64,000 bases of DNA from Psilocybe cubensis. Taxonomy: Eukaryota. Shown here piece after piece: positions 1 through 56,356 of this stretch. Under the pieces are notes generated by a model. That model was not told the origin of the DNA and did not search any database. It was given only the letters and a program-made list of their open reading frames with translations. Each line of letters begins with the position of its first letter. Position 1 is the first letter of the stretch. A program made the position numbers and the translations under genes. The stretch lies in NCBI GenBank assembly GCA_017499595.2, contig CM039007.1:496001-560000 (forward strand). Direction: 5' to 3'.

Positions 1-146
1 ATATCAAATTAAAACGAGAGGCTGTATCTCCACAAGCAGAGACGGAAGCTCCACAGGTAGAAGCGGAAGCCTCTCAACCAACCAAGCGGAAAAAAGCCGT
101 AGCTCCTCGTCGTCCTTCAAAAAAGGCAAAGCAGGATGAATTATGA
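1..146 (+). CDS. 3' end of tyrosine recombinase A (partial)
   Basis: Reads ...IKLKREAVSPQAETEAPQVEAEASQPTKRKKAVAPRRPSKKAKQDEL* (TGA 144-146); same as the end of the complete copy at 12840-16540. Confidence 0.85.
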   Translation, partial: IKLKREAVSPQAETEAPQVEAEASQPTKRKKAVAPRRPSKKAKQDEL

Positions 147-400
147 CTATTAATTGGTATTTTTGACGCTCTTCCTTATGTACTTGACTGTACTAGTTTA
201 TCTTTCATAGTTTGTGTATATTTATGCAGACAGAGTAGCCGCAGACAACCATGATTGTAAAGTTTCAAATAACAAGATAATAATGAATACTTAATGCCGC
301 AGCAGCTATGCAACTTGCTTTCGTTTAAACTCTCCTTTAACTCGTCTTGATTTCAAACACACATCTTGCAATCCAACACAACAATTGCTGCATTTTCAAC

Positions 401-2254
401 ATGGGAATAAATGGACTTTCAAAGGTGCGTACAACGGAATAATGTTAGGTATAGTCTTACAGTGTCAAGATAGGCGATTAAACCCATTGAGGAAAGAGCA
501 TCTCTATACGAGAGTGCCTCTAAGGTTTCTATGGTGGTCCTCTACGAATTCTTTTCATGAAGCTGTGTTACTTTTTAAAGTATCCTGCTATCATGGTCTT
601 TGTGTACGATGGACCGGGACGTCCAGCACTCAAGCGTGGTCGTCGTGTCCAAAATTCTCCACCATTCTGGACAGCTCCCTCTATGGACATAGTACAAGCG
701 TTTGGATATTATGTCCACCAGGTATGCCATAATTTATTCTATTGAATAACACTAGTAGCTAAGTTTTGACGTTGCCTTGTTTAGGCACCCGGTGAGGCTG
801 AGGCCGAGCTTGCTATGCTCAATCAACACGGCCTCCTTGATGCAGTCATCACAAGTGACAGTGATGTTTTTGTGTTTGGAGCGACTACAGTCTATCGCAC
901 GTATGTAGACAATGTTATCAAATTGATTGAATTGGGATTGAAATCATGATAATAGCATCCCGGCCAAAACAAGACGTTTTGAAGATGAAATTGCTGTATA
1001 CACGGCTGAAAACATATCAAATGTTATAGGACTAACAAAGAAAGGTCTCATTTTAGTGGCACTACTTTGTGGAGGAGACTATGACGCAGTAGGACTCGAC
1101 GGATGCGGTCCAGCTACTGCTCTTGGCCTCGCAAAATGCGGATACGGTGAAAGTCTGATTCAAATAGTTCAAACTTTTCACGGAGAGCGATTGACTGCTG
1201 CCATTGCTCAATGGCGTTTGGACCTTCAAAAGGAACTTTTCTCAAACTCCAGTGGACATCTGAGAGGAAAGGAGCGATCACTGGCCAAAAGCATTCCTGA
1301 TTCTTTTCCCAGCCTTGATACACTCTCACTCTACTTGGAACCTGTAGTATCTGCCGGTGCTTCGTCCCATCTTGCTCCTGTTTATGACTTTAGGCACAGA
1401 GAACCATCTTTGAATCGTCTTGTTATGGTGTCATCGACTCATCTGGGGTGGAATACAGAAGAAATTATAAAGGACAAGTTCAAGAGAAATGTATGGGAAG
1501 GTGTCTTTCTGCAGATGCTATACTCGGTGAGTTGTCTATACTACGTTTAAATGCAATCGTAGCTGTTATTCATTGATCTGGCATATTACAGAAGTTTATT
1601 CTTTACGACCACACCCAGCAGATCCTTGCCACACCCAATATTCAAGCACGTTTATTCAACCGTAAAATTGCTAATCGAGCTGGTCGTATGGCACCAAATA
1701 CTTCTAGATACCAAGCCAGATTATTGGTATCGGCACAAAACTTCATCGCATTGATGAACCCCTCATTTCAGTCGTCTACTAATTCGGACACATTTCGAGC
1801 TTGGGTCCATATAGATGCCTTACCGGAAAGATTGCTTCAAGGTTAGTTTTGAGACAAATGGTATTTTCAGCGCTTACATTGACCTCTAGAGCTATCTGGG
1901 GATACTAAAACCACACAAAAAGCTGACAAGTCTCGGGTCATGTTTGTTGAAGGATCTTCTGGAGATAGCAGCCAACAAGCAGCTGCATTTCCAGAGCCAA
2001 CCAAGCATCATCGGGGCGGAATTCTTGAAGCCTTGGACCATATGATGGTAGACCTTGAACATATCAAATTATTGCAGGATATTAATCAATAACGGACTGC
2101 TCAGAAGGGAGAATATGCATCCTCAACTACAAGATCCCTGTTGATTGATCCCAATGTCATCGACTTGACAGAAGATTCTGACCATGAGAAGAGATCTATA
2201 TCTATCCCATCTTCGCTGCCTGAAACTGAATGCTCAATAATTGATTTGACTTAG
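401..2254 (+). pseudogene. XPG/Rad2-family (GEN1/Yen1-like) nuclease of element A, with N-terminal deletion/frameshift
   Basis: Motifs MGINGL, VFVYDGPGRP..KRG, APGEAEAELAMLN, VITSDSDVFVFGA and LLCGGDYD..GLDGCGP (H3TH). Relative to paralogue B, ~154 nt including GVDIS are missing at ~525 and the frame shifts. Ends NVIDLTEDSD...SIIDLT*. Confidence 0.75.
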
Positions 2255-2336
2255 TTATGCTTCCAATATGAAGACACGGACATCATCTTTGCTTGTACCT
2301 AGTCAAAGTAGTATGCATTGACTAATCTACCGTATT

Positions 2337-2400
2337 ACTCTACTGTCTGGTATGCAACTCATGACTTGACTCTACTGTCTGGTATGCAACTCATGACTTG
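2337..2400 (+). repeat. Perfect 32-bp tandem duplication downstream of XPG-A
   Basis: actctactgtctggtatgcaactcatgacttg x2 (2337-2368, 2369-2400). Confidence 0.95.
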
Positions 2401-3957
2401 ATGGTCGGGAAAGGCTTTGATCATATTAATCTGCTTCACTAATCTGCTTTGTTTCGATGAGACTCAATAATCGATGGGCACATTGCAGGGTGCAGGGCAG
2501 AGTGCACAGAAGCAGATGATGATGGAAATGGGATGTGCACACACGGGGTATACTTGCACGACAGAAAAAAGTGGTCCTGCACATAAAGACGGCATTGTAC
2601 AGTACGACTCAACTTAGAATGAGGCCGGTGGGGTATAGCAGTGTAGGAAAGGAAGAGGGTGAAAAACTATGGGCAATCCCAGTGTATTTCCATGCCTGAA
2701 AATTCCTGGGCCACCCATGCGAATTGAGGCACAGTATACCGCAATCTCTCCATCACCAGTCTCCCAGGCATTGATGCCTGAGGGCAGCAATGTATGCGAT
2801 AATATGCGGGGCGGAGCCAACAGTGGGCAGGATGGAGATGTGACAGCGGACGGGGCAGGACGGGGCAGAGGTGATGAGGGGGATACACCACAGAGGAGAA
2901 GAAGGCAGGGGGATCCAACTTGGGTGATAAGAGAAATCGACATACGCACCTAGTGTGTCGATTCCATCAACTGCGCCTTACACCTTGCATGGATCCATCC
3001 CAGCAAAAAAAATTAGAGAGTAGTTAGCACATAAGAAAGGATGAAAGAGAGCCTGCCGGCAACGGTGTATGACCATGCCTGAGGATTCCCAGTGTGCCGG
3101 CAGGCAGAAATAAAAAGAGAGGAAAGAGTGCTCACAGACCTGTATGCTCCCAGCGCGAGCTAAGACCCACGCAATCAAATGTATCTCGCGGGAGGCCACT
3201 GGGATAAACACGGGGGGAAAGTGCAATACAATCACCCATCGCGTGGACATATGTCAGGAAGAACAAAGGAAGAGACTGGACGAGTTTCTGCTTACCTTAC
3301 TCACACACGCAACGCCACCATGCAATGCGGGAGCAAAGTGCGACGCGACACGACGTGATTTGGATGTCGAGTCTCTACCCACAAATACTAGTAAGTTGCT
3401 CACCTTATTTTCTCTTCCTTACCCCACCACCATAGCGCGGGAGATAAGGCCAATATGTACGACGCGACACGACGTGCCGGCCTTCGGGGTGCGTGTTTGG
3501 ATGTCAAGGGCGCCGTGTCGCACTATTTGACGCCCTGCCGCGCGACTTGTGACGCAAGACTGCAGAAACTCCAAAAACAAGGTAGAGTGGCAGAAATAAA
3601 CAAAGAAAATAGATTACTCACGATTGGAGAAGTGTGACGCAAGGGAGAAACACGAATCAACGCGCATTGCATAGAGCTCGCCCCATGCTGAATCGCCTGG
3701 TTGAATCGCATGGTGCCATAATGTCTCTCTCAGCGGTGTCAAATGTACACTCGTACACTCACCTTATTGTCACATTCTATTTCCACCTCTCCTCCACACA
3801 CAATGCCCTTCCTGCAACGCGAAGCGACGCGCAGTCGCGAGAACTCCGCCATCCAAGCGATGCCATGCAAATCGGGTTCGGATGTTCGGATTGGGTCGAG
3901 GGCGGCCGTTCAAGCTACCTATTGAGGCAAAGGACGGCGTCGGGGGTCGAAATTCTT

Positions 3958-4273
3958 GTGACCTGAGCGGTCGAAGTCGCGCCAAACATTGGTGACCTGG
4001 GAGTGACGAGCGGCGAGCGATCGAGGGGCGGGTCCCAGCGAGCGGAATGGAGGTGAAGGGACGAGTAAGAAAACGAAAGGGAAAGTCAACAAAAGCCGCG
4101 GCTGACTCAGCTTAGCTAATCATTCCCGGTGACCCAAAGCGGGTGACCGGGTCCCCAGGTCACAGGGAGTTCGCTATAGAACGAGGAGACCCCAGTGGCC
4201 TTTCTAAGGGTCCGGTCACAAGGGTTTTGTGACCGCCTGCCAAAATTGGCGGGCAGTCACCAGAGTTGGTGAC
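3958..4273. other. Putative recombination (att-like) junction A|B
   Basis: Core GTTC-gctata-GAAC at 4169-4182. GTGAC/GTCAC boxes at 3958, 3992, 4003, 4129, 4143, 4159, 4215, 4229, 4256, 4269. Inverted repeat cggtcacaa-N5-ttgtgaccg at 4213-4235. Confidence 0.8.
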
Positions 4274-5432
4274 TTCGCTAGGGACTCAAAGTGAGCTTTA
4301 TGCCGGTTCGGCGATTGTAAATCAGCCGTGCCTCGCCCTATCTCTACACAAGCTCTGTCAGCGACCACCGCCATCACCATGCCTGTCCCCCCAAACCGTC
4401 CAAGCTCACGTACACAACTGGATTTCTTCGATAAACCGCCGCTCATCAACCCTCAGTTGGCAAGACTCAAGCCAACACCATCTAGACCAACTGCAACACC
4501 GTCTAAACCAACAAGACTGCCAATTCAAACACTAACACGCTTTCAAACGCTAACACGCTCGCCATGCACTCTCAATTCCTATATACCTTCGTTGCTCACA
4601 AGCCCCGCTATAGAGGTGGAGGGTTTGAAACTGCTCACAACGGTGGTCTGAATATAATCAAGTCAGGTACGTTATTCAATATTATGTCGATCCTTCACTT
4701 ATTGATTGTGGAAGCAGCGCAGGCAGCAGTGCTCTTCTTGCACGGCCCTCACTGTCCCACGGACAATCACCGCCCTCTGTGTTTGAGTTGCCATTGCGCA
4801 AACACTGTCTTTTTGGGCATCAGACCCACGGGTGTTCTACTACCCTCGTTCTTGCATCTCAACCATCACATTGTCTTTCCTTGCGCATCTCAAGTCTCAC
4901 GCGCGCTGTGGTGTCTATTTTCTCTCACAAAAGCACACAATCCTGTTGTCGCCATCTTACTGTCTTGTTCAAAGTCGGTTTGGATCACACGTTGGAAAAC
5001 CAGAATTGTCATTGTGAGTATTTCAAGATTCCTCTATTTTTTGACACAGATGCTCAAATGCGACACCAATTAACACCAATAGTTCAGATTGATCACAGCA
5101 CAGATTGCGCGCAGTGTCAATTGAGTACTGCACAGCAGGAACTAGTGGGAATTGAAGGCGGTTGGCATTTTTGGGACGGTCTTGGTTTCTTTTCGTAAAT
5201 CATGTTGCTTTCATTGTATTCTCTACTCACGGGGACCAAATACAACATTTACATCGAATTATAGCTCGGGAATCCAACACAGGCCTCAATTACCATTCAG
5301 GGCATTTGTAATCAACATTCTATGTGCCTTTATTCAACAATGAAACTTGGGCCACCCGTTGAAGCATATAACTTGCATTTTATGTTTTCGCTCTTTCTTA
5401 TTTTTCCTCGCTAACAGCCTGTCTACATACTC

Positions 5433-8400
5433 ATGGATGGTACTTCTTTTGAGCCTGATCCCCTACTTTCTGAACACAATGATTTGCTTTATCCATCCCG
5501 GACCTTGGATGGCACAGTTGTCTCAACTCTTGAAGAGTACTCTGCAGCACTGTATGGTTTCTTTTTCTCAACCAAATTTGACTTGTTGATGTTTCTTTTA
5601 GTGACACTATACGACGGAAAGAGCGTTTGAGGGAAGCATGCAGCAACCTCCATCTTTCAGTCCCTAAAAGTGCTAATTTAGAGCGCCTTCGTTCAGCTCT
5701 CAAATTATACTGGTCGGTATATTTTTCAGTTTGTGGTAGTTGATCCTTTTTATTGACTTCTGTTTGATAGGTTTCCGCTGGATAGCAGTGCCGATACTGC
5801 ACCTACTACTATCAATACTGTGAATGAAGCCACCGAAAATCAAGCTGACATTGAAGATCAACATCTTTCCGCACAATCCCACAATATCATTGACGATGGA
5901 GCTCTTATTTCACACTTTTCGGTTGAAGGTGCAGCAGCTGATGAAATACTAGGATACGACGAGGACAATGAGTTACTTGATGAGGATGATGAATTTGGAG
6001 AAGATCTCGACAACAATGAAGACGACATCATGGATACTAGCGATGACTTTGAACAATTTGTTACTCAGACACGGGTTGACGAGGCTAAAAGATCGGAGAA
6101 AAATCGACGAGCAGGTGGCGTAAAAACACAGTCGGCAGTTGTAAGAGACTGGAAGGTATGGTATCATGTTTTGCTAAAGCTGTACTCAGCTCATGTATTC
6201 TAGATGTTTTGTCGCCAAGCATTGGACAAGGGTGAAATTCAAGATGACATAGTTGACTGTCATCATCTGCTCCTGTATATTCGACATTCAGCAGAGCGTC
6301 CAAAGCGTACTCGCAAGGGTCTTGATATTCCGGGTACTTATCTTGGTGCTGTAAGTTTCACCAGTAACAGATCGTGAACTGTCACTCATACTATCTAGTC
6401 CCAGTTGAAGAAACTCTACTTTGGTGCATTACGGATTCGAAAAATGCAAGAGGCCCTCGATCCAACACTTGAAAAAACTCGGCCCGCTAAGTCTATTCAC
6501 GTTTGGGACTGTATAAAAGGAAGGATGAATGAAGCCTTAAATCGTAGTCGAAAGTGAGTGTTATTTTTTGTATAATCTTGACAGAGTTCTTATCCAGGAA
6601 TCAGTGGCTTAATTCCAGGAGAGGATGCTCCTGATATTGTTGCCAACACGTTTCTGGCAAGTGTAACCGAAGAGCAAATGGCCAAAATAGGTGGAGGGTT
6701 TTTGATGCATCGGGAATGTGAGTTTTTCCATCCAAGACAATTCACTTTGGGTTGAGCTTGATGAGATCTTCCAAGTGCGATCTGTCATTAATGGACATCT
6801 TGCATGGGCAGCCCAAAATGCTTCTGGGAATCGAGGAGACGACTTTCGTGCACTCAAACTTGCGGAACTACAACCATATGTTTTTCTTCACCCCAATAAA
6901 GAAACTGCAGTTGAATGTGTCCTGGGACTTCAAGGCGAAGAGAAAGCTGCTGCTAACCGTGGATTGCGTACAAAAGTTAATCCGGTTTACACAGTATTTA
7001 TTGCACATAAAGATCCAACAATATGCCCGCTTGGTGCCTTTGCGTTTTATCATCATTTCATCCATGATGTAAAGAAGCTTACCGAAGAACTTGATGTTGA
7101 TTGGTCAATCAACAAAAGTTGGAGACAAGTCCGTGTTTTGCATGGCAAGACTTCTCCAACAACCCCTTACCACGAACAGAGTTTGTATAACCTTTACGTC
7201 AAGGCCTTCTCACAGGCCAATTTTATTTCAAAAATCAAGGCTCACCTTCCTCGCCATATTCTTGGTTATAGCCAAGAGAAGATGGGGTAGGTGAACTTGG
7301 TTGAACGTATATCTCAAATCATGATTGTTAACTTGTCAAATCAATTAGCGTCGATGGGGTACACACATCAAGATTGGGATGGGTTCGTGGTGAAACATAC
7401 TTTGATACATACGCTCCAGCAATTCCAAAAGAGGTATTTTTGTTATGACATGTTATGGTTTTTTCTCTTACACCGTTTTCTAGGCCGTTCTCGGTGCTCA
7501 TGGATACAAAACACATGAAGTATATGACCCTCTGTGGCGACGTGTCCATGTTCCAGAGGCATTTTTAAACTTGGTATGCCCTATCGCCGAGGATATTCAT
7601 GCCAAAATTGTGGGAAGAGCCAATTTGTCGGGTGCAGCCAATTATTGGGCAATGGTAATATCGCTCCGCCCATATTTATTCCAGGTTTGCTCTTTGTTAT
7701 CTTTGCTACTCATCACTCATATATATTGTAGTGTGGTGCTGCAATTTACCAGAAGTATCCTGAATCCGCATTATTTCGGCTTCCAGCTTTAGCAAATCCC
7801 CAGGTCCAACACTGGATGAAAACCGAGTATCCAACAAGCCTTGCTCACTTACAAGCTAACGCAGGAAGTACAGTGGATTTGGAACGTATACAAAACAACC
7901 TTCTTCGCCTATCTCTTGAAGAAATGAGGGCGCTTTTAGCAACCCAGGCAGCAGAATTGAAGGAAATGCGTCTTTTAATTCAGCGCCGTACTGATGTTCT
8001 TTCTCCAACCAAGGGATTCTCAAATTTGTCATATCAACATAGTTTAAACGTCTCCAAAGGTATCTTGACTTAACTTGCTATTGATATATTTCTGTGAATT
8101 GATTTTTCAACTATAGTCCCGCAACCTGTATTTACGCTAGCTGTGCCAGAGAGTCCACTGGCTAACAAATCTGCCGGTCATAGTGCTACTAAAAATAGCG
8201 ATGATACGGGAATTTATGTTTTGAATGCTCCAAATGATAGCAAACAACCGGGAAGCCCACTTCGCGCCTTTGCAAATGGATCACCAAAGGTTTCTTCTGA
8301 ATCCCGTTCGCGGACACAAGTTGATCTTGTATTGCCCCATGTTGACGCTTTCTCAAACCCTGGTGTGCCGTCTTATGTTTCTAACACTACTATTGTCTGA

Positions 8401-9150
8401 ATGCTAATAAATCTATGGCCACACATTAGGTGGACCACAACTGTTTTGGCCGCCTGTTCTTGGTCAGAAATCAGTGACGTGGGAGCAAGTCTTTAGACTT
8501 ATCAAGCGACCCGAACTGTTATGGGATGCATGGTGTCCATCAAAGACCCTTAACAAATATACACTCAATGAACAGTGGACATGTTACAATTCTGGCGAGC
8601 CGGTTTTTAATGCTTCGGGTACTCAGACAGGTATCAAGCCTCCACTTCAGCAAGTTGAGCTGCACTTTCAGTCAGCATGGCGAACTAAACCAGCAGTATG
8701 GTTTAATTATCTTTTTCGAGCTGTATACATGGTTTAATCCTTTCCTTTTGTATACTAGGCACGTAAGGCGTGGCAGCGCTTTCGCGAAATTCCGGAGTTT
8801 ATTCATTCCGAGTCTACTTTACGTGGTGTATCCCCACAAATTGTAATCGAAGAGCTTGAAAAATCTGCTACAGGGGGCAATGGCAGAGTGAAGGGACTCT
8901 CAGCAATCACTGATGAAATCTATGCACAACGCATAGCAAAGGCGCAAGCATCAAAAGATGTACGCATATTTTAAAACAAACTTCTGACCACCTCTAAATT
9001 CAATTTTAGGTAATATCTGCTAGTGTTCAAAGCACAAACTCCAATAGCACTCAAAGTGTATCTACAGAGCCGCCCATCGGTAGAAAAAAACGGCAAGCAC
9101 CAGTTGCTCCAAGGAGGCGCACAAAAAATTTAGTTGAACCATCAGCATAG
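5433..9150 (+). CDS. Crypton-type (Ndc10-like) tyrosine recombinase B with C-terminal GCR1_C-like domain, multi-exon
   Basis: GNRGDDFRALKL (R 6832), QGEEKA, CPLGAFAFY, AHLPRH (H 7243, R 7252), SRLGW (W 7380), YFDTYAP (Y 7410). C-terminal TLNEQW...KPPLQQVELHFQSAWR...WQRFREIPEFI...IVIEELE. Short GT-AG introns (e.g. 5552-5601); stop TAG 9148-9150. The start codon is the best guess. Confidence 0.85.
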
Positions 9151-9332
9151 TGTAATCGATGACAGTGTAACCTTACTTAGTAGTATTGAGCCCGCACGTA
9201 ACTTAGTTTGAGAAGTCTCATAATACAATGGTCATACTCTTATATCAACAATCCAATCTGAGTTATTTGACATCTCTTTTATCCATACACACAACACAGC
9301 GGCAAATCACATTGACAAGTTGATAATTGACA

Positions 9333-11148
9333 ATGGGAATTAATGGGTTATGGCCAGTAAGAACCATTCAATGTCATGTCTGAGTCTTGGTGTGCTGAGT
9401 TGGCTACTACAGACAATCAAAGAAGCGGAAAGCAGGATCTCAATTCTCTCTACTGCTCTTGACCATCGAGAGAGTTCCGGAAAAATTGCGATGAAGCTTG
9501 GGGTTGATATAAGGTATTTCATGGTTTAAAATTTTGATCTATTAGTCTTAATTAGAATCAAAAGCACACTTATGAGCGAGTGTGTTGCAGCACTACAGGG
9601 ACCAACAATCAGTGGCCAATTCTATGGCGGTGCACTGCACATTCTATTCATGAAAATGTGTGAATTCATCAAATATCCCTTGACTCTAGTATTTGTTTAT
9701 GATGGCCCTGGTCGACCTCTCATAAAACGCGGGACTAATGTTCGTGTAAACCAAAGCCCATTTTGGACCAATCCATCTAAAGATATCATTCGGGCATTCG
9801 GATATCACATACACCAGGTATTGCATGCTGTCTGTGTAATTGTATTTAATATTAACTCCAAAATAGGCGCCCGGAGAGGCTGAAGCGGAATTAGCTATGC
9901 TAAACCGTAGAGGATTGATTGATGGAATCATCACTAACGATAGTGATGTTTTTGTCTTTGGCGCACAAACAGTATACCGCACGTAAGAACATTCTTCAAA
10001 CTTGCTCAGTATACTGGATATTGAACATCAAATTTTATTAGCATTCCAACCAAGGAAAGACATTTTGAAGATGAAATGATTGCCTACACGTACTCGCATC
10101 TTTTGGATTTAGGATTAACATCCGGTGGACTTGTTTTATTTGCCCTAGTCTGTGGTGGCGATTACGATTGCGCGGGTCTCAAAGGATTTGGGCCGTCCCA
10201 TGCACATGCTCTTGCATCGTGCGGATTTGGGGATCAGCTTGTCAAAGCATTCCAGACGTTAAGCGGTGTTGCTCTTCAGGATTTTCTCAACCACTGGCGC
10301 ACAGAAATCAAGCATGAATTATTGACAAATTCCCATGGCCATCTACATAGCCGTTCACCTGTCCTGTCCGAACGTCTCACAGAATCTTTCCCCGACCTTG
10401 ACATTCTTGATCTTTACTTGAATCCACTAACTTCTGCCCCAGGTCAAAAATTTCAACCGTGGATTTTACAAGAGCCATCAGTTCCCGGCCTAATTGATGT
10501 TTCGTCGACACACTTGGGATGGCGATCCGAGGATGTACTCAGGAAAAGGTTCAAAGCCAAGGTTTGGGAGGGTATTTTTCTTCAAATGCTTTATTCTGTA
10601 AGTCATCTATTCACATTTACGAGTGCAAAACAAGGTCTCATGCTGCTTCTAGCCCCTCATATTATACGACTCTTCCCGGAAACTTTTCGCTACGCCAAAT
10701 ACCCAAGCTTTGGTTCTGACCTGTAAATTGCTCAAGCGCAAAGGCTGTGTACAACCCAACGCTTCAGAGTTACATGCCCGATTGCTTGTGTCGGCTCAGA
10801 ACTTCGTCACATTGATGGGTTTCCACTCAAACCAATCCAATGAGGTTGACCAATTTCGAGTCTGGGTTCCTCGGAGTATTTTGCCCCAGGAGTTACATAC
10901 TACAGTCGAAGGTAGTTTTATCTAACTGACCTACACATTGTATACTACTAACCACTTGCTCAGGTTCTCAATCCGTAACAAGAATGAAGATAAATCCCAG
11001 TCGAAGGCGCAGACCCAGCAGCAGCAGCTCCACGATGGAAGAACAAAACAATTCCATTCGGCATTTTGAGGTCATTGATTTGACTGACGAGACCGAGGTC
11101 TCGAACATTCAATCTACATCCAATGTTATTGATCTGACTCAGGATTAA
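9333..11148 (+). CDS. XPG/Rad2-family PIN + H3TH nuclease (GEN1/Yen1-like) of element B, multi-exon, apparently intact
   Basis: MGINGLWP, LGVDIS, VFVYDGPGRPLIKRG, APGEAEAELAMLN, IITNDSDVFVFGA, LVCGGDYDCAGLKGFGP; ends FEVIDLTDETEVSNIQSTSNVIDLTQD*. Confidence 0.88.
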
Positions 11149-12202
11149 TTCTGGCTTCAACAGACGTAGCAAGTATGTAACAGCGTAGAAAAGTAACAAA
11201 GAGTAGTGATTAATGTACACAAGGAATTATTTGATTATTTGAAAGCGAGGTCTGCAGTGGTACAGCACAGAATTTCTACCAGATAAACGCTAGCGGTGAA
11301 CGTCTGAGCATTGGGGAGGGGAAGGGGGTGTAGGACTGTTAACTCACAAAAACAATATGCCACTCTACTGCTCAGAAACAACGCCACACCTAAAAGCTAA
11401 CCTCACCGCCAATCACGGTTGATGGCTGGTAACAACTGGCGTGCAGGCATTATAGAGTCTTCTTTCAGGGATAGACAAATGTGACTCCTCCGCATCCATG
11501 ATGGCGGCAGCGTTGGAGTTGTTCAGCATCTCGTGTAGGAGCACAAGCTGGCGATGGCAGAGATTGTGGCGATCCGTGGACGCGCGCCACGACGTAGATC
11601 TCTCTAAGTGGCAACAAAATTCTTCAACTATATTAAACCAGAAAAAGAAAGAAAAACGAACGCACGCTCAACATTGTTCGCAAACTCTCGCACCATACCC
11701 AAATCCCTCCATAGCCACACAAACACACCACCCAGAAACATAAAGAATTTGAAAGCAAGGTCTTCTGTAACACATGGATATGATAAATGTTAGCGGCACA
11801 TGGGAGGAAGAGGAAACTCACAAAAAATAATACAAACAATGCCGCCCAAAAGCTAACCCCCACAAACATCCTTGGGGTCAAGCCTACAATGCAGCGGAGG
11901 CGTACATTAGCCAGTGGGCGAGAAGATATGGGATTAACATCGTTAGATTGTCAGCAGCATTAGTAAAAAGTATACAGTGGAGTTAAAAGAACACCGGGTG
12001 GTAGGCAGTGAGTGTATGACCATGCCTGATCATTCCTCAGCTCCCATCCACCAGTGCACGGAGAAGGGGGGTAGAGCGAGCAAAAAAATGAACAGAGAAC
12101 ACTCACGTTTTGCGCAGATCGGCCGCTCGAATCCAACAAGGAAAGCGGGTGCCCGTGAGCACACGTATTTGGGAATTGACGGCGTTGGGGGACGAAATTG
12201 TT

Positions 12203-12540
12203 GTGACCGGAGCGGAGGTCGACCAGCGAAAAGCTGGTGACCGGAGAGTGACGAGCGGCGAGCGATCGAGGGCGGGTCCCAGCGCGATGAGTTAGCAGGA
12301 GGCGGGAATGAAGGGGAGTGAGGCAGAATGAAGGTGGAGGTCAACGAAAGATCAGATTCGCGGGAGTATTACATAATCATTATCTAAGCAGTCCGGTGAC
12401 TCGCCGCGGTGACGGCGTCCCCAAGTCACAGGGAGTTCGCTATAGAACAAGGAGACCCCCGTGGCATTCCTTGGGGGTAGGTCACAGACGTTCTGTGACC
12501 TACCGCACAAATTTGGCCCTGGGTCACAGAGCTGGGTGAC
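12203..12540. other. Putative recombination (att-like) junction B|A
   Basis: Core at 12435-12448. Boxes at 12203, 12237, 12248, 12396, 12409, 12425, 12481, 12495, 12523, 12536. Perfect 13-bp-arm inverted repeat ggtaggtcacaga-cgt-tctgtgacctacc at 12476-12504. Confidence 0.8.
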
Positions 12541-12839
12541 TTTCACTGAGGCATTCAGTGAGCATCGCGACCTGCACCGGACAACTGCGGGTATGTGCCG
12601 CCATTGATTTTTGTCTGTGGCCTCTAGTGGCACTGGCCAATATGCGCACAACACCGGTCAAACTCATGAGTGCCATTCAACGTGAAATGACCGGTTATTT
12701 TCTTTTGGTGAGTGTCCATTCTCCATCGCTCCAGTGGCCCATCGTTGAAATCACCTAGTACAACATAATAAAAGAATGTACTCTATAAGATGTCTTATGA
12801 ATATACATTTTCCCCCACCAAATTTTTCTGAGTAAACCA

Positions 12840-15800
12840 ATGCAGTCTCGCATACTATCTCGCACCGAGTCTTCTGAGCAAGCTCAACATGCTGAAATTA
12901 TGATCCCTACGACCGACGCCAATGGTATTATCAACATATCCCGCGCTCAGTACATGTCTAGGCTAGCTGCTATACGACGGAAAGAGCCACTTCGCGAAGC
13001 ATGTATTGATGCTAATTTGGCACCACCTAAGAGTGCAAATTTAGAGCGTCTTCGAACGATGTTGACGGACTACTGGTATGTGGCACACTTTATACACTCT
13101 TATTTCTATATGCTTAGTGTGTTTTTTGGGTCGCGTTAACAGGTATCCTCCAATTGTCATGGAGGAATCAATTTCTAATGAAGTTTCTGAGCTACAATCT
13201 TCTAGCTCGCAACATGCTAGCACATCAGTTTCCGTGTTGAGAGATAATAACGACGAAATCCTTGTTCAAGAATTTGGGGTTGAAGGTGCTGCTGCTGAAG
13301 AGGTTCTTGGGTACGATGATGATAGTGATAGTGACCCTGAGGATGAATTTCGAGAGGTTCTTGAGATCAACGATGAGCTCCTAGACCACACAGCCCTCGA
13401 AGACGACGATGAATCTGACTTGGAGACTCAAATGCAAGGTGGACCATTTCCAGGCGAAAGTTACACCAAATTTCAAACTCGGATCCGGCTCGAGGAGACA
13501 AGACGTGCAGAGAATAATCGACGAGCAGGTGGAGTTAAGACTCAAAGTGCGGTTATCAAAGATTGGAAGGTCATTCATTGGCTGTCTCTATGTATACACA
13601 TTCCAAATCTAACTTGAATATCTTTCAGATCTTTTGTGGTCATGCCTTGAAGACGGGTCAAATCAAAGATGAAATTGTTGATGCCCACCATCTATTATTG
13701 TATATTCGGTACTGTTCCGAGCGACCAAAGCGAACACGCAAAGGCATTGACATACCTGGTACATTTATTGGCGCGGTAAGTCCTGATATTAGTGTATCAG
13801 ATGACGTATAAAACTTACATTGATTCTCAGTCACACATTAAGAAACTATATTTTGGTGCTCTTCGTATCCGTAAAGAGCAAGAAGCCAAAGACCCCAGTC
13901 TTTCCCAGCGGCGCCCAGCAACCAATGTCCATGTTTGGGATGCACTTAAAGGTCGTATGAATGAAGCTCTTCGACGGGCTCGAGAGTCTGTTTCTTTTTA
14001 ATCTGCTACACTGATTATAAGTTGCTAATTCCATGTCATCAGAGGCCTCATACCCGAAGAGGACGCGCCGGACATTGTGGCCAATACATTTCTCTCCGGA
14101 ATCACAGAAGCGCAGATGAACAGTGTTGGAAAAGGCTTTCTTATGCATCGAGAGTGTGAGTAACTTTTTGAATACTTTGGTGTAATAATTTGACAATGTT
14201 TTCTAGTACGTTCGGTTATCAATGGTCATTTGAGCTGGACTGCACAAAATGCATCAGGAAACCGTGGGGATGATTTCCGAGCGCTTCGACTGGCTGAGCT
14301 GCAGCCATATGTCTTTCTTCATCCAAATAAAGAGACGGCCATTCCGTGTGTTCTCGGATGTCAAGGAGAGGAGAAGGCAGGTGCTAGCAGAGGAATGAGA
14401 ACGGTAAATTTAAGCTCTCAATTCACTTGTTCCTATCTGATATATTATCTACACTATTCAGAAAGTTAATCCGGTGTATAGTGTATTTATTGCCCACCTG
14501 GATCCAGTTAAATGCCCACTGGGAGCATTTGCTTTTTATCATCATTTCCTTCACGACGTCATTGATATCACCTCAGCATTAGATATCAACTGGTCGATCA
14601 ATAAAACCTGGCGACAAGTACGTGTTCTACATGGCAAAAAGTCATATGCGACTCCATACCATGAGCAAAGCCTGTACAATCTCTATGTTAAGGCATTTTC
14701 CTCTGCTGCATTCACATCACATTTGAAAGCACATCTACCACGTCATATCCTTGGATATAATCAAGAGCGCATGGGGTAAGCTCAAATGTATTTAGTTAAA
14801 TGCTTAATGACTTATTTCAATTCAGTGTTGATCCCTCTGTAACATCTCGGATGGGATGGGTACGAGGAGAGACTTATTATGATACCTATGCACCGGCACT
14901 TCCAAAAGAGGTAAACTTTCCCCTTCATTATCCCAAAACCTACTAACTGACTGTGCACGTATTAGGCTGTACTCGGTGCACATGGATATAAATCTCATGA
15001 GGTGTATGACCCCATTTGGCGTCATGTTCACATCCCCGAGGTATTTCTGTGTCTTGTATGCCCAATGGCTGAAACAATCTATTCAGATGTTGTTGGACGA
15101 CAAAATCTGTCTGGTGCCGCAAACTACTGGTCAATGGTTATGGAGCTACGTCCCTATCTGTTCCAGGTAAGAACTTTGTTAATTGTACAGTGTTGTATTA
15201 ATGTTATACTTTAGTGTGGTGCTGCCATCTTTCAAGAAGTACCAGAATCAGCATTATTTCGGCTTCCGGCCTTTGCTCATCAAGATGTCCAGAATTGGAT
15301 GAAGCACCAGTTTCCAAACGATTTTTCTTTGTTGAAAGCGAGTGCAGGAAGCAGGGTTGATCTCCAGCGGATCCAGAATCAGCTCCTTCAGCTTGCCCTT
15401 GAAGAAACCCGATCATTACTTGCATCACAAAGTGTTCAATTAGCTGAAGTTGCTCGAATTCAGAAGATAGTTGAGCAGCGTACTCAAGTGTTATCACCGG
15501 CAAAGGGATATTCAGCAGTCCACTACTCGTCTAGAGTGTCTACAGCATCATCGGGTGTGTCACATAGCTGTTTCATGTCGTGTTTAATATTTATTGACCT
15601 CTTTTCTTAGCTGCAGTTCATGAGCCACTTCCTGCTCTGCAGCTCACAACAGCCAATCATGACACATTTGAAAGTGCTAACTGTGAAAACGACGACACCG
15701 GTGTGTATATGGCTGAAAATGGGGATTTCCGAGCATTTGCAAATGGATCTCCAAAAACCCCAACACATACCATTCGCCGGAAGCGTTCACAGGTTGATTT

Positions 15801-16540
15801 AGTGCTACCGAGTGCGTCTGCTTTCACAGAACAGGGTAGGTTATCACCTTTACCATATATATGTTTGCTAAATACAAATTTGTGAATACAGGTCAGCCAC
15901 AATTCTTTTGGCCTCCGGTCTTTGGACAGAAATCTGTGACATGGGACCAAGTATTTGCTCTTATCAAGCAACCCGAGCATTTATGGGACTGCTGGAAGCC
16001 ATCAAAGACACTTGATAAATATGATCTTCACGATCAATGGGCGTGCTGGAGTGTTGGTGAGGGGGTAAATGATGCAGATGGTAATCAGACATCTGTCAAG
16101 CCGCCTCTACGTGAGGTGGAACGTCATTTCGGATCATTCAATCCGGAGGGTAAGCATCTCAAAAGTTGGCGAAGCGGAATTTCATCCAAAGTAAGGAAAT
16201 TTGACATTTATATCAATTCAAGGACTTACAGAAAGCATAGGACCGCAAATTCTGGCAGCGGTTTCGAGAAATTCCTGAGTTTATTGACTCAGAAGCTCAT
16301 AACCGCAAGGTCTCTCCACTCTCAATTATTGATGAACTTGAGATTCTAGGCCAGCAAGACAGACGATTAAAGGGACTTTCAGCACTTACAAAGCATATCA
16401 AATTAAAACGAGAGGCTGTATCTCCACAAGCAGAGACGGAAGCTCCACAGGTAGAAGCGGAAGCCTCTCAACCAACCAAGCGGAAAAAAGCCGTAGCTCC
16501 TCGTCGTCCTTCAAAAAAGGCAAAGCAGGATGAATTATGA
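12840..16540 (+). CDS. Crypton-type tyrosine recombinase A with GCR1_C-like domain, multi-exon
   Basis: WTAQNASGNRGDDFRALRLAELQ, QGEEKA, CPLGAFAFY, AHLPRH, SRMGW, YYDTYAPALPK. C-terminal LHDQW...KPPLREVERHFG...WR...WQRFREIPEFI. Exons through the catalytic domain splice in frame with GT-AG introns. Confidence 0.87.
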
Positions 16541-16794
16541 CTATTAATTGGTATTTTTGACGCTCTTCCTTATGTACTTGACTGTACTAGTTTATCTTTC
16601 ATAGTTTGTGTATATTTATGCAGACAGAGTAGCCGCAGACAACCATGATTGTAAAGTTTCAAATAACAAGATAATAATGAATACTTAATGCCGCAGCAGC
16701 TATGCAACTTGCTTTCGTTTAAACTCTCCTTTAACTCGTCTTGATTTCAAACACACATCTTGCAATCCAACACAACAATTGCTGCATTTTCAAC

Positions 16795-18648
16795 ATGGGA
16801 ATAAATGGACTTTCAAAGGTGCGTACAACGGAATAATGTTAGGTATAGTCTTACAGTGTCAAGATAGGCGATTAAACCCATTGAGGAAAGAGCATCTCTA
16901 TACGAGAGTGCCTCTAAGGTTTCTATGGTGGTCCTCTACGAATTCTTTTCATGAAGCTGTGTTACTTTTTAAAGTATCCTGCTATCATGGTCTTTGTGTA
17001 CGATGGACCGGGACGTCCAGCACTCAAGCGTGGTCGTCGTGTCCAAAATTCTCCACCATTCTGGACAGCTCCCTCTATGGACATAGTACAAGCGTTTGGA
17101 TATTATGTCCACCAGGTATGCCATAATTTATTCTATTGAATAACACTAGTAGCTAAGTTTTGACGTTGCCTTGTTTAGGCACCCGGTGAGGCTGAGGCCG
17201 AGCTTGCTATGCTCAATCAACACGGCCTCCTTGATGCAGTCATCACAAGTGACAGTGATGTTTTTGTGTTTGGAGCGACTACAGTCTATCGCACGTATGT
17301 AGACAATGTTATCAAATTGATTGAATTGGGATTGAAATCATGATAATAGCATCCCGGCCAAAACAAGACGTTTTGAAGATGAAATTGCTGTATACACGGC
17401 TGAAAACATATCAAATGTTATAGGACTAACAAAGAAAGGTCTCATTTTAGTGGCACTACTTTGTGGAGGAGACTATGACGCAGTAGGACTCGACGGATGC
17501 GGTCCAGCTACTGCTCTTGGCCTCGCAAAATGCGGATACGGTGAAAGTCTGATTCAAATAGTTCAAACTTTTCACGGAGAGCGATTGACTGCTGCCATTG
17601 CTCAATGGCGTTTGGACCTTCAAAAGGAACTTTTCTCAAACTCCAGTGGACATCTGAGAGGAAAGGAGCGATCACTGGCCAAAAGCATTCCTGATTCTTT
17701 TCCCAGCCTTGATACACTCTCACTCTACTTGGAACCTGTAGTATCTGCCGGTGCTTCGTCCCATCTTGCTCCTGTTTATGACTTTAGGCACAGAGAACCA
17801 TCTTTGAATCGTCTTGTTATGGTGTCATCGACTCATCTGGGGTGGAATACAGAAGAAATTATAAAGGACAAGTTCAAGAGAAATGTATGGGAAGGTGTCT
17901 TTCTGCAGATGCTATACTCGGTGAGTTGTCTATACTACGTTTAAATGCAATCGTAGCTGTTATTCATTGATCTGGCATATTACAGAAGTTTATTCTTTAC
18001 GACCACACCCAGCAGATCCTTGCCACACCCAATATTCAAGCACGTTTATTCAACCGTAAAATTGCTAATCGAGCTGGTCGTATGGCACCAAATACTTCTA
18101 GATACCAAGCCAGATTATTGGTATCGGCACAAAACTTCATCGCATTGATGAACCCCTCATTTCAGTCGTCTACTAATTCGGACACATTTCGAGCTTGGGT
18201 CCATATAGATGCCTTACCGGAAAGATTGCTTCAAGGTTAGTTTTGAGACAAATGGTATTTTCAGCGCTTACATTGACCTCTAGAGCTATCTGGGGATACT
18301 AAAACCACACAAAAAGCTGACAAGTCTCGGGTCATGTTTGTTGAAGGATCTTCTGGAGATAGCAGCCAACAAGCAGCTGCATTTCCAGAGCCAACCAAGC
18401 ATCATCGGGGCGGAATTCTTGAAGCCTTGGACCATATGATGGTAGACCTTGAACATATCAAATTATTGCAGGATATTAATCAATAACGGACTGCTCAGAA
18501 GGGAGAATATGCATCCTCAACTACAAGATCCCTGTTGATTGATCCCAATGTCATCGACTTGACAGAAGATTCTGACCATGAGAAGAGATCTATATCTATC
18601 CCATCTTCGCTGCCTGAAACTGAATGCTCAATAATTGATTTGACTTAG
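16795..18648 (+). pseudogene. XPG/GEN1-like nuclease of element A copy 2 (same lesion as 401-2254)
   Basis: Repeat of 401-2254 at +16394. Confidence 0.75.
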
Positions 18649-18730
18649 TTATGCTTCCAATATGAAGACACGGACATCATCTTTGCTTGTACCTAGTCAA
18701 AGTAGTATGCATTGACTAATCTACCGTATT

Positions 18731-18794
18731 ACTCTACTGTCTGGTATGCAACTCATGACTTGACTCTACTGTCTGGTATGCAACTCATGACTTG
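18731..18794 (+). repeat. 32-bp tandem duplication (second copy)
   Basis: Repeat of 2337-2400 at +16394. Confidence 0.95.
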
Positions 18795-20351
18795 ATGGTC
18801 GGGAAAGGCTTTGATCATATTAATCTGCTTCACTAATCTGCTTTGTTTCGATGAGACTCAATAATCGATGGGCACATTGCAGGGTGCAGGGCAGAGTGCA
18901 CAGAAGCAGATGATGATGGAAATGGGATGTGCACACACGGGGTATACTTGCACGACAGAAAAAAGTGGTCCTGCACATAAAGACGGCATTGTACAGTACG
19001 ACTCAACTTAGAATGAGGCCGGTGGGGTATAGCAGTGTAGGAAAGGAAGAGGGTGAAAAACTATGGGCAATCCCAGTGTATTTCCATGCCTGAAAATTCC
19101 TGGGCCACCCATGCGAATTGAGGCACAGTATACCGCAATCTCTCCATCACCAGTCTCCCAGGCATTGATGCCTGAGGGCAGCAATGTATGCGATAATATG
19201 CGGGGCGGAGCCAACAGTGGGCAGGATGGAGATGTGACAGCGGACGGGGCAGGACGGGGCAGAGGTGATGAGGGGGATACACCACAGAGGAGAAGAAGGC
19301 AGGGGGATCCAACTTGGGTGATAAGAGAAATCGACATACGCACCTAGTGTGTCGATTCCATCAACTGCGCCTTACACCTTGCATGGATCCATCCCAGCAA
19401 AAAAAATTAGAGAGTAGTTAGCACATAAGAAAGGATGAAAGAGAGCCTGCCGGCAACGGTGTATGACCATGCCTGAGGATTCCCAGTGTGCCGGCAGGCA
19501 GAAATAAAAAGAGAGGAAAGAGTGCTCACAGACCTGTATGCTCCCAGCGCGAGCTAAGACCCACGCAATCAAATGTATCTCGCGGGAGGCCACTGGGATA
19601 AACACGGGGGGAAAGTGCAATACAATCACCCATCGCGTGGACATATGTCAGGAAGAACAAAGGAAGAGACTGGACGAGTTTCTGCTTACCTTACTCACAC
19701 ACGCAACGCCACCATGCAATGCGGGAGCAAAGTGCGACGCGACACGACGTGATTTGGATGTCGAGTCTCTACCCACAAATACTAGTAAGTTGCTCACCTT
19801 ATTTTCTCTTCCTTACCCCACCACCATAGCGCGGGAGATAAGGCCAATATGTACGACGCGACACGACGTGCCGGCCTTCGGGGTGCGTGTTTGGATGTCA
19901 AGGGCGCCGTGTCGCACTATTTGACGCCCTGCCGCGCGACTTGTGACGCAAGACTGCAGAAACTCCAAAAACAAGGTAGAGTGGCAGAAATAAACAAAGA
20001 AAATAGATTACTCACGATTGGAGAAGTGTGACGCAAGGGAGAAACACGAATCAACGCGCATTGCATAGAGCTCGCCCCATGCTGAATCGCCTGGTTGAAT
20101 CGCATGGTGCCATAATGTCTCTCTCAGCGGTGTCAAATGTACACTCGTACACTCACCTTATTGTCACATTCTATTTCCACCTCTCCTCCACACACAATGC
20201 CCTTCCTGCAACGCGAAGCGACGCGCAGTCGCGAGAACTCCGCCATCCAAGCGATGCCATGCAAATCGGGTTCGGATGTTCGGATTGGGTCGAGGGCGGC
20301 CGTTCAAGCTACCTATTGAGGCAAAGGACGGCGTCGGGGGTCGAAATTCTT

Positions 20352-20667
20352 GTGACCTGAGCGGTCGAAGTCGCGCCAAACATTGGTGACCTGGGAGTGA
20401 CGAGCGGCGAGCGATCGAGGGGCGGGTCCCAGCGAGCGGAATGGAGGTGAAGGGACGAGTAAGAAAACGAAAGGGAAAGTCAACAAAAGCCGCGGCTGAC
20501 TCAGCTTAGCTAATCATTCCCGGTGACCCAAAGCGGGTGACCGGGTCCCCAGGTCACAGGGAGTTCGCTATAGAACGAGGAGACCCCAGTGGCCTTTCTA
20601 AGGGTCCGGTCACAAGGGTTTTGTGACCGCCTGCCAAAATTGGCGGGCAGTCACCAGAGTTGGTGAC
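20352..20667. other. Putative recombination junction A|B (second copy)
   Basis: Core GTTCGCTATAGAAC at 20563-20576; same as the 4169 junction. Confidence 0.8.
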
Positions 20668-21826
20668 TTCGCTAGGGACTCAAAGTGAGCTTTATGCCGG
20701 TTCGGCGATTGTAAATCAGCCGTGCCTCGCCCTATCTCTACACAAGCTCTGTCAGCGACCACCGCCATCACCATGCCTGTCCCCCCAAACCGTCCAAGCT
20801 CACGTACACAACTGGATTTCTTCGATAAACCGCCGCTCATCAACCCTCAGTTGGCAAGACTCAAGCCAACACCATCTAGACCAACTGCAACACCGTCTAA
20901 ACCAACAAGACTGCCAATTCAAACACTAACACGCTTTCAAACGCTAACACGCTCGCCATGCACTCTCAATTCCTATATACCTTCGTTGCTCACAAGCCCC
21001 GCTATAGAGGTGGAGGGTTTGAAACTGCTCACAACGGTGGTCTGAATATAATCAAGTCAGGTACGTTATTCAATATTATGTCGATCCTTCACTTATTGAT
21101 TGTGGAAGCAGCGCAGGCAGCAGTGCTCTTCTTGCACGGCCCTCACTGTCCCACGGACAATCACCGCCCTCTGTGTTTGAGTTGCCATTGCGCAAACACT
21201 GTCTTTTTGGGCATCAGACCCACGGGTGTTCTACTACCCTCGTTCTTGCATCTCAACCATCACATTGTCTTTCCTTGCGCATCTCAAGTCTCACGCGCGC
21301 TGTGGTGTCTATTTTCTCTCACAAAAGCACACAATCCTGTTGTCGCCATCTTACTGTCTTGTTCAAAGTCGGTTTGGATCACACGTTGGAAAACCAGAAT
21401 TGTCATTGTGAGTATTTCAAGATTCCTCTATTTTTTGACACAGATGCTCAAATGCGACACCAATTAACACCAATAGTTCAGATTGATCACAGCACAGATT
21501 GCGCGCAGTGTCAATTGAGTACTGCACAGCAGGAACTAGTGGGAATTGAAGGCGGTTGGCATTTTTGGGACGGTCTTGGTTTCTTTTCGTAAATCATGTT
21601 GCTTTCATTGTATTCTCTACTCACGGGGACCAAATACAACATTTACATCGAATTATAGCTCGGGAATCCAACACAGGCCTCAATTACCATTCAGGGCATT
21701 TGTAATCAACATTCTATGTGCCTTTATTCAACAATGAAACTTGGGCCACCCGTTGAAGCATATAACTTGCATTTTATGTTTTCGCTCTTTCTTATTTTTC
21801 CTCGCTAACAGCCTGTCTACATACTC

Positions 21827-24800: not shown

Positions 24801-25544
24801 ATAAATCTATGGCCACACATTAGGTGGACCACAACTGTTTTGGCCGCCTGTTCTTGGTCAGAAATCAGTGACGTGGGAGCAAGTCTTTAGACTTATCAAG
24901 CGACCCGAACTGTTATGGGATGCATGGTGTCCATCAAAGACCCTTAACAAATATACACTCAATGAACAGTGGACATGTTACAATTCTGGCGAGCCGGTTT
25001 TTAATGCTTCGGGTACTCAGACAGGTATCAAGCCTCCACTTCAGCAAGTTGAGCTGCACTTTCAGTCAGCATGGCGAACTAAACCAGCAGTATGGTTTAA
25101 TTATCTTTTTCGAGCTGTATACATGGTTTAATCCTTTCCTTTTGTATACTAGGCACGTAAGGCGTGGCAGCGCTTTCGCGAAATTCCGGAGTTTATTCAT
25201 TCCGAGTCTACTTTACGTGGTGTATCCCCACAAATTGTAATCGAAGAGCTTGAAAAATCTGCTACAGGGGGCAATGGCAGAGTGAAGGGACTCTCAGCAA
25301 TCACTGATGAAATCTATGCACAACGCATAGCAAAGGCGCAAGCATCAAAAGATGTACGCATATTTTAAAACAAACTTCTGACCACCTCTAAATTCAATTT
25401 TAGGTAATATCTGCTAGTGTTCAAAGCACAAACTCCAATAGCACTCAAAGTGTATCTACAGAGCCGCCCATCGGTAGAAAAAAACGGCAAGCACCAGTTG
25501 CTCCAAGGAGGCGCACAAAAAATTTAGTTGAACCATCAGCATAG
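21827..25544 (+). CDS. Crypton-type tyrosine recombinase B, copy 2
   Basis: Repeat of 5433-9150 at +16394. Confidence 0.85.
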
Positions 25545-25726
25545 TGTAATCGATGACAGTGTAACCTTACTTAGTAGTATTGAGCCCGCACGTAACTTAG
25601 TTTGAGAAGTCTCATAATACAATGGTCATACTCTTATATCAACAATCCAATCTGAGTTATTTGACATCTCTTTTATCCATACACACAACACAGCGGCAAA
25701 TCACATTGACAAGTTGATAATTGACA

Positions 25727-28596: not shown

Positions 28597-28845
28597 GTGA
28601 CCGGAGCGGAGGTCGACCAGCGAAAAGCTGGTGACCGGAGAGTGACGAGCGGCGAGCGATCGAGGGCGGGTCCCAGCGCGATGAGTTAGCAGGAGGCGGG
28701 AATGAAGGGGAGTGAGGCAGAATGAAGGTGGAGGTCAACGAAAGATCAGATTCGCGGGAGTATTACATAATCATTATCTAAGCAGTCCGGTGACTCGCCG
28801 CGGTGACGGCGTCCCCAAGTCACAGGGAGTTCGCTATAGAACAAG
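28597..28845. other. Right border of the array (attR-like half junction with host DNA)
   Basis: Left-hand boxes and core are present. After gaacaag the sequence is agagaaaatg rather than gagacccc, and the right-hand GTCAC/GTGAC palindromes are absent. Confidence 0.85.
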
Positions 28846-56222: not shown

Positions 56223-56356
56223 TTGTAACGTTTCGCGAATGTTCGAGGAAAATAGATGTTCTATACAGGTAACTTTATAGTCCTTCGAGTACAGCTACAG
56301 ATATAAAGTGTGTGTGTGTGAGGTGTAGCTTCGTCAAAATGGTCAATCAATGTTGC

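Follow-up and report, generated by a model that had tools for sequence, protein, structure and literature searches.

Organization of the Locus

The window analysed here, a stretch of 64,000 nt of the Psilocybe cubensis genome (assembly GCA_017499595.2, contig CM039007.1, positions 496,001-560,000 of the forward strand; all positions given below refer to the window), is occupied over its first 28845 bases by a head-to-tail array in which two diverged elements, X and Y, each about 8.2 kb long, alternate as X-Y-X-Y (see Table 1). Comparison of the window with itself shows that bases 1-12451 recur at 16395-28845 with 0 mismatches over 12451 bp; given this repeat and the alternation of X and Y, the window opens inside the array, which runs past its left edge, so that the right junction, at 28845/28846, is the only array end that is visible. 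That the two X-Y units are identical throughout may mean that the unit was duplicated very recently, that a dimer circle of X and Y was integrated, or that the repeat is an artefact of the assembly.

Each element contains a recombinase gene and, downstream of it, an XPG-like nuclease gene; these are the only genes conserved between X and Y, and in the same self-comparison the resemblance of the two elements is confined to the coding exons and to the joints. No reverse transcriptase or LTRs were recognised in the elements, and none of eight reading frames taken from their non-conserved parts was matched by Pfam. Terminal inverted repeats were not found either, the similarity of the left end to the reverse-complemented right end being within the range of shuffled sequences (36 and 142 of 300 shuffles reach the score). 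Judged by the sequence of its tyrosine recombinase, which places it with the Crypton kind, each element is a large CryptonF-like transposon; what is new here, with respect to known Cryptons, is the nuclease gene and the presence of many sites at the ends, both described below.

Outside the conserved parts, the two elements show features of their own. Compared with X, element Y carries about 900 bp of extra DNA between the left-end boxes and the recombinase gene (4276-5432 in Y), where the reading frames, none longer than 189 aa, are absent from X and give no match to Pfam. Element X, for its part, has a perfect 33-bp tandem duplication in its 3' non-coding DNA, seen at 2337-2401 and at 18731-18795. 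Past the boundary at 28845/28846, the window holds ordinary host genes, among them ABC and MFS transporters; neither relics of the recombinase or of the nuclease (in 28851-64000) nor a further copy of the core (in the window) were found. The host flank has repeats of its own, namely an inverted pair of diverged ABC-transporter genes (37072-41201 on the minus strand and 51940-56177 on the plus strand, with stretches about 71-84% identical), two MFS-transporter-like genes in tandem (56347-58209 and 59682-61559, 76% identical), and a direct repeat of 0.9 kb (29675-30568 and 31173-32070, 80% identical).

Table 1: Position of the elements, of their junctions, and of the features of junction 1 in the window. 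A slash between two positions, or within the core sequence, marks the boundary between elements or between the array and host DNA.
Feature	Position	Strand	Description
Element Y	4186-12451	+	8266 bp; recombinase gene ~5433-8962, GEN1/XPG-like nuclease gene ~9413-11145
Element X	12452-20579	+	8128 bp; recombinase gene ~12828-16537, XPG-like gene ~16921-18228
Junction 1 (X right end, core, Y left end)	3958-4273 (boxes)		Boundary 4185/4186; GTGAC (+) at 3958, 3992, 4003, 4129, 4143, 4229, 4269; GTCAC at 4159, 4215, 4256; start-to-start spacings 34, 11, 126, 14, 16, 56, 14, 27, 13
Junction 2 (Y right end, core, X left end)	12203-12540		Boundary 12451/12452; same ten boxes, orientations as in junction 1; spacings 34, 11, 148, 13, 16, 56, 14, 28, 13
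Junction 3	20352-20667		Identical copy of junction 1
Right end of last Y copy (half junction)	28597-28845		Six boxes (28597-28823) and left part of core, then host DNA at 28845/28846
Distal triplet R1-R3, right end of X	3958-4007	+	Direct GTGAC at 3958, 3992, 4003; 34/11 spacing in X and Y
GC-rich block overlapping R3	4001-4040 (Y: 12246-12284)		GAGTGACGAGCGGCGAGCGATCGA.GGGCGGGTCCCAGCG; X and Y agree without mismatch over runs of 24 and 15 nt
Purine-rich spacer	4041-4116		Poorly conserved; length unequal between X and Y
Proximal trio R4 (+), R5 (+), R6 (-), right end of X	4129-4163		R5/R6 form GTGAC-N11-GTCAC adjoining the core
Core	4164-4193		AGGGAGTTCGCTATAGAACGAG/GAGACCCC; boundary 4185/4186; dyad GTTC-GCTATA-GAAC inside
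Palindrome L1/L2, left end of Y	4213-4235		CGGTCACAA-N5-TTGTGACCG
Palindrome L3/L4, left end of Y	4255-4274		AGTCACCA-N4-TGGTGACT

The Recombinase Gene

On the exons present in the window, the first gene of each element is recognised by the Pfam family NDC10_II (36.6 and 27.9 bits, cut-off 26.3); the closest public protein, again from Psilocybe cubensis, is 99% identical, and 131 relatives at E <= 0.001, out of 618 candidates, are spread across the Agaricales, in genera that include Psilocybe, Panaeolus, Gymnopilus, Mycena, Favolaschia, Pleurotus, and Lentinula. When 22 homologues are compared, R419 and Y591 are invariant, while H556 and R559 (the H-x-x-R motif) and W581 are at least 90% conserved; the AlphaFold model of the protein matches Ndc10 (E = 8.6e-7), the Crypton-derived QRICH1, Cre, and Flp. 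As far as can be judged from its sequence, the recombinase looks active.

The same model contains extra folded domains at about residues 55-120 and 850-1030, connected to the core of the protein by long linkers that are predicted to be disordered, with a pLDDT below 50; two additional domains tethered as in this model are what a binder of two kinds of sites (core and arm) would need. The identity of the C-terminal one is a guess: GCR1_C reaches 21.0 bits in the public protein that is 99% identical (Pfam cut-off 23) and 31.0 bits in a homologue from Pluteus, PF12550 is carried by at least seven homologues among the 120 matches listed, and the exon of the window, when searched alone, gave no GCR1_C hit at E <= 0.1. 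The GCR1_C-like domain is modelled with a pLDDT of 76.5 and has no relative among solved structures (best E = 2.0); look-ups of the domains in a protein atlas stayed at chance level (0.75-0.77 for a likeness of the N-terminal domain to SAP/HeH, 0.81 for the GCR1_C cluster). The motif of yeast Gcr1 is CTTCC, and it has 0 occurrences in both junctions, 0.79 being expected per 376 bp.

The GEN1/XPG-Like Nuclease Gene

The second gene of each element, downstream of the recombinase gene, is recognised by XPG_I with 68.3 bits (cut-off 24.9). Its best relatives among solved structures are 5cnq and 6grb, both entitled "Nuclease-like protein" (E = 6.9e-33 over residues 966-1251), the former of which we take to be Chaetomium GEN1; the matches to Rad2 (4.9e-15) and to human GEN1 (3.8e-14) are both weaker. 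By similarity, the gene would encode the core of an XPG/Rad2 nuclease of the GEN1/Yen1 branch.

The association of the two genes is apparently not limited to this locus. Among the 120 matches listed, XPG_I occurs within one predicted protein for at least 11 homologues, from several Agaricales genera, and in nine of the 11 it is accompanied by the recombinase domain, so that the two genes seem to be inherited as a pair. Recombinase and nuclease are joined, across a gap of about 450 bp (8962-9413), in the nearest gene model among public records (1448 aa); since the recombinase frame of X ends at 16537 and matches a separate public protein of 1053 aa, this fusion is probably a merge introduced by annotation. 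The GEN1-like protein might resolve Holliday junctions where the target mismatches the core. In the literature collection searched, no paper mentions both Crypton and XPG, and no such elements were described among the 15 best matches listed for Cryptons with GEN1, Yen1, or a resolvase, nor among the 15 listed for Cryptons in tandem arrays.

The Core and the Spacers

The joints between the elements are defined to the base. The X-Y, Y-X, and Y-host joints all align to one same position, immediately after GGGAGTTCGCTATAGAACAAG, and the breakpoint between the array and the host DNA lies at the place homologous to the boundary of junction 1; all joints and the array end thus fall on one fixed position, which is a signature of conservative site-specific recombination and would be expected if the tyrosine recombinase of the element carried it out. 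Around it lies a block of 30 bp in which 29 positions are identical between X and Y and which, the array ending precisely inside it, should contain the crossover site; the 18-mer GGGAGTTCGCTATAGAAC is found in the window at the four junctions only. No GTGAC occurs within the core, and the boxes described below are therefore a second class of sites, flanking the crossover region.

The initial annotation had proposed an architecture like that of an attP site, in which a core is accompanied by arm-type sites. A real core is indeed present, free of boxes and flanked by a second class of conserved sites, and this part of the proposal stands; clear inverted core-type sites are missing from it, the only candidate seen being GTTC-N6-GAAC, with arms of 4 bp, and the visible breakpoint falls 7 bp to the right of this dyad. 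That breakpoint bounds the crossover on one side only, and, provided that the target was similar to the element at that point, the dyad GTTC-GCTATA-GAAC could be the true region of exchange.

The boxes alone do not account for the conservation of the junctions, the GC-rich block that overlaps R3 (4001-4040) being as conserved as the core; this block contains GAGCG twice, CGATCG, and GGGCGGG. The region 4028-4123, which includes the adjoining spacer, aligns with 60 of 96 columns identical, plus 13 gap columns; in the interval between distal and proximal boxes (4041-4128 in junction 1, 12285-12395 in junction 2), GAATGAAGG is repeated in Y. The distal triplet is placed at -225.5 from the boundary in X and at -246.5 in Y, that is, 21 bp farther in Y; a shift of 21 bp corresponds to two helical turns and would therefore keep the rotational phase of the triplet, which taken alone is weak evidence.

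The GTGAC/GTCAC Boxes

The claim that each full junction carries ten GTGAC or GTCAC boxes within about 320-340 bp was borne out, both in their positions and in their orientations. Six boxes lie at a distance of at most 226 bp from the right end, five of them as direct and one as an inverted copy, and four lie at most 90 bp from the left end, as two palindromic modules 42 bp apart. From X to Y the orientation of every box is identical, and the spacings are equal within 1 bp, with the exception of a single indel of 21/22 bp; the details of geometry given in the initial annotation (the N11, N9, and N8 pairs, the 34/11 triplet, the distance of 56 bp, and the offset of +97/+98) are all recovered. 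So are the self-complementary palindrome arms, cggtcacaa/ttgtgaccg and ggtaggtcacaga/tctgtgacctacc: the arms of L1/L2, of 9 nt in Y, have changed in X and are still complementary, over 13 nt, at 12476-12504. R1 and R2 belong to longer repeats, with GTGACCTG present twice in X and two 20-nt repeats 80% alike in Y, and the 11-mer TTGTGACCGGA occurs both at the far right end and at the left end of Y. Over the 20 sites of the two junctions an extended motif, yKGTGACy, can be read, position -1 being G or T in 18 of the 20 and position +1 never being A. At position +2 of R1, R2, L1, and L2, there is T in X and G in Y; a co-variation of box flanks specific to each element, which would have hinted at co-evolution with a cognate protein, was considered at this position and dropped as not significant (1461 of 20000 permutations reach it).

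The density of boxes is a property of the junctions and not of the window, which holds 109 of them (118.8 +/- 10.3 in dinucleotide shuffles), 36 in the four clusters and at most four in any other stretch of 340 bp. At the background rate of 0.42 boxes per 340 bp, the Poisson probability of ten or more is 3e-11; in first-order Markov simulations with the composition of each junction, ten boxes were reached in 0 of 20000 runs (means of 0.79 and 1.02, maxima of 6 and 7). Overall, about 0.4-1 boxes would be expected by chance, where the initial annotation had put about 0.6. In both junctions no 5-mer is more enriched than GTGAC/GTCAC (ten, with 0.47 expected), and the 7-mer TGTGACC occurs four times in each of them (0.03 expected). 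Outside the clusters only 73 boxes are present, as compared with about 119 in the shuffles of the whole window, so the pentamer is seemingly under-represented elsewhere. In a search for relatives in bacterial and archaeal DNA, 65 pattern matches were obtained, none of which encodes one.

Junctions 1 and 2 are homologous and cannot be counted as independent draws; what counts is the survival of the boxes through the divergence of X and Y. In the alignment of these two lineages, in which the aligner anchors on conserved words and the boxes themselves act as anchors, the box columns are identical in 50 of 50 cases, and the other non-core columns of the junction in 187 of 293 (64%), plus 27 gap columns; in the arm of the left end, 47 of the 90 non-box columns are identical (52%). 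Only 72 of the 306 other 5-mers of the junction are conserved, and the survival of ten boxes out of ten has therefore a probability of about 5e-7, to be read with the same two lineages and the same anchoring in mind. The similarity between X and Y spans 3933-4275, beginning 25 bp before the first box and ending 2 bp past the tenth, and no alignment between X and Y was obtained in the adjoining non-coding DNA (approximately 4276-5600 and 10900-12085).

Possible Role of the Boxes

From the array, the core, and the constraint on the boxes, we infer a role in recombination: the boxes may be subterminal recognition sites, bound by a domain that the element encodes, which would organise its ends into a complex competent for recombination. 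This proposal is given roughly even credence here. A sequence-specific domain of the element would bind the yKGTGACy sites, the candidates being the small N-terminal domain of the recombinase, its C-terminal GCR1_C-like domain, or a further factor; binding would fold the two ends, or the junction of a circle or tandem, into a higher-order complex that would bring the catalytic domains to the core and govern both excision and integration. A more elaborate version may be imagined, in which a lambda-like complex is assembled on ten GTGAC sites, on both sides of the core, through an element-encoded domain, the element's own GEN1-type Holliday-junction resolvase finishes those exchanges that are beyond the recombinase because the target matches imperfectly, and the full site, formed only in a circle or in a tandem junction, possibly switches on the expression of the recombinase after excision; we consider it unlikely that all of this holds together.

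The position of the boxes also suggests a role in transcription, as a promoter or operator of the junction in which the boxes and a TATA-like core (GCTATAGAAC) would control the downstream recombinase gene, bound by a host factor or, in autoregulation, by the GCR1_C-like domain, the full set again existing only in a circle or tandem junction. All boxes do precede the recombinase gene and lie on its strand side, the last of them in X being about 290 bp ahead of the point where the mapped coding residues begin; CTATAG is present in the core, and GCR1_C is called, in the excerpted text of PMC3212892, a DNA-binding domain common to yeast transcription activators. However, the coding region of Y begins about 1160 bp past the last box, the interval before the second gene is devoid of boxes, and the upstream element contributes six of the ten boxes from its 3' end; moreover, an array that ends exactly in the core is predicted by recombination and not by a promoter. 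Such a role, the foremost alternative, would account for the same data and is on balance held to be unlikely. A more distinctly improbable explanation relies on structure in DNA or RNA: the inverted pairs would act by folding into hairpins or cruciforms, and not as sequence-specific protein sites, and the GEN1/XPG-like nuclease, for instance, could use them as substrates or as places to load. It would be in keeping with the presence in each element of a nuclease related to GEN1-type enzymes, and with the stem of L1/L2, which is perfect in both elements (z = -2.9 and -6.6) despite changes on both arms; matching changes on both arms are, however, equally expected of a site for a dimeric protein, and R1-R5, half of the ten boxes, are repeated in direct orientation. 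L3/L4 folds in Y (z = -4.5) and not in X (z = +0.55), although its boxes are kept in both; the complementarity around R5/R6 is not conserved between X and Y beyond the 5-mers, and no known RNA family of Rfam was detected in the window at gathering scores or in 3800-4400 at E <= 1. Hairpins were rejected as a general explanation, only one of the three inverted pairs keeping its stem in both elements.

Short pentanucleotide boxes in direct and inverted pairs are reminiscent of the iterons of origins and partition loci, and the recombinase is homologous to Ndc10, a centromere-binding protein; the boxes could accordingly be thought to tether or segregate an excised circle through the Ndc10-like protein, in the manner of plasmid partition sites and point centromeres. 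We regard this as very unlikely: the element was not found to encode any protein of replication or partition, its other reading frames being without a family match, and nothing points to a stable episome. Finally, the boxes might have no function at all and derive from old local duplications, kept by chance or through recent shared ancestry. L1/L2 and L3/L4 do resemble a duplicated module of 42 bp, and R1/R2 a duplication of 34 bp, and the comparison is one of two lineages; it is nevertheless scarcely credible that all ten boxes should have stayed intact in this way, at the surrounding identity and with the probability reported above, while the non-coding DNA on either side has become too divergent to align.

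Of all classes of eukaryotic DNA transposon, Cryptons are understood least, and the present locus supplies base-precise ends, a candidate crossover core, and a set of cis sites that can be tested, in a family that is abundant among mushroom-forming fungi and widespread in the Agaricales. Should the boxes be recognition sites for recombination, they would help in detecting these elements and drawing their limits, would provide a defined substrate on which a Crypton recombinase could be studied biochemically for the first time, and might yield a new eukaryotic tool for site-specific recombination; the linked GEN1-like gene, in turn, raises the question of how such elements resolve recombination intermediates.

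Comparison with Known Systems

CryptonF DNA transposons were reportedly described by Goodwin et al. in 2003. According to the excerpted text of Kojima and Jurka 2011 (PMC3212892), the CryptonF elements listed measure 1775-5999 bp and are described with terminal direct repeats of 6 bp (8/9 bp in one case) or, in two cases, with terminal inverted repeats; the same excerpts state that Crypton boundaries are hard to define, as is restated in those of a 2026 paper, and in both sources the ends are described as repeats of 4-6 bp only. No internal or subterminal arrays of sites in CryptonF are described in the excerpts of PMC3212892. The fixed-site joints of the present array fit the model proposed for Cryptons (PMC3212892) and the behaviour of an active CryptonF of Chlamydomonas (PMC9977147), as both are presented in the excerpted texts. 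The elements of P. cubensis share with CryptonF the Ndc10/Crypton-type tyrosine recombinase, whose C-terminal region is a borderline match to GCR1_C, and the lack of reverse transcriptase and of terminal inverted repeats, and their precise joints are consistent with a circular intermediate and with recombination at a short sequence; unlike the CryptonF elements listed, they are 8.1-8.3 kb long, carry a second gene (GEN1/XPG-like), and have structured ends of about 320 bp.

The likeness to attP of phage lambda, with its arm-type sites for Int, consists in a core that has, to its left and to its right and over about 240-320 bp, several copies of a second motif, fixed in orientation and spacing, and in a recombinase that is modelled, like Int, with additional tethered domains. 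Unlike attP, the junctions do not show a 7-bp overlap clearly framed by inverted core-type sites, and their second motif also forms palindromes; the system is eukaryotic, its arm-binding domain is a candidate only, and we know of no counterparts of IHF, Xis, or Fis for these elements. The N-domain of lambda Int is a beta-sheet domain, whereas the N-terminal domain is helical in the model of the present recombinase. In the Xer systems, whose cer and psi sites include accessory sequences, and in FRT, which has a third Flp-binding element, extra protein-binding DNA shapes the topology or the directionality of the synapse, and here too extra candidate sites adjoin the core of a tyrosine recombinase; those sites, however, stand on one side and are served by ArgR, PepA, or ArcA, or amount to a single extra element, whereas ten repeats flank both sides of the core in P. 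cubensis.

Subterminal arrays bound by an element-encoded protein that joins the ends are known from the plant transposons Ac/Ds (AAACGG) and En/Spm (the 12-bp TnpA motif), which resemble the present elements in having many copies of a short motif, in both orientations, in the 100-300 bp next to each end, distributed differently at the two. The likeness is one of architecture only, Ac/Ds and En/Spm having a DDE transposase, terminal inverted repeats, and target-site duplications, unlike the present elements with their tyrosine recombinase and no terminal inverted repeats; as an analogy, and on these architectural terms, the subterminal arrays of Ac/Ds and En/Spm would nonetheless serve as well as lambda attP.
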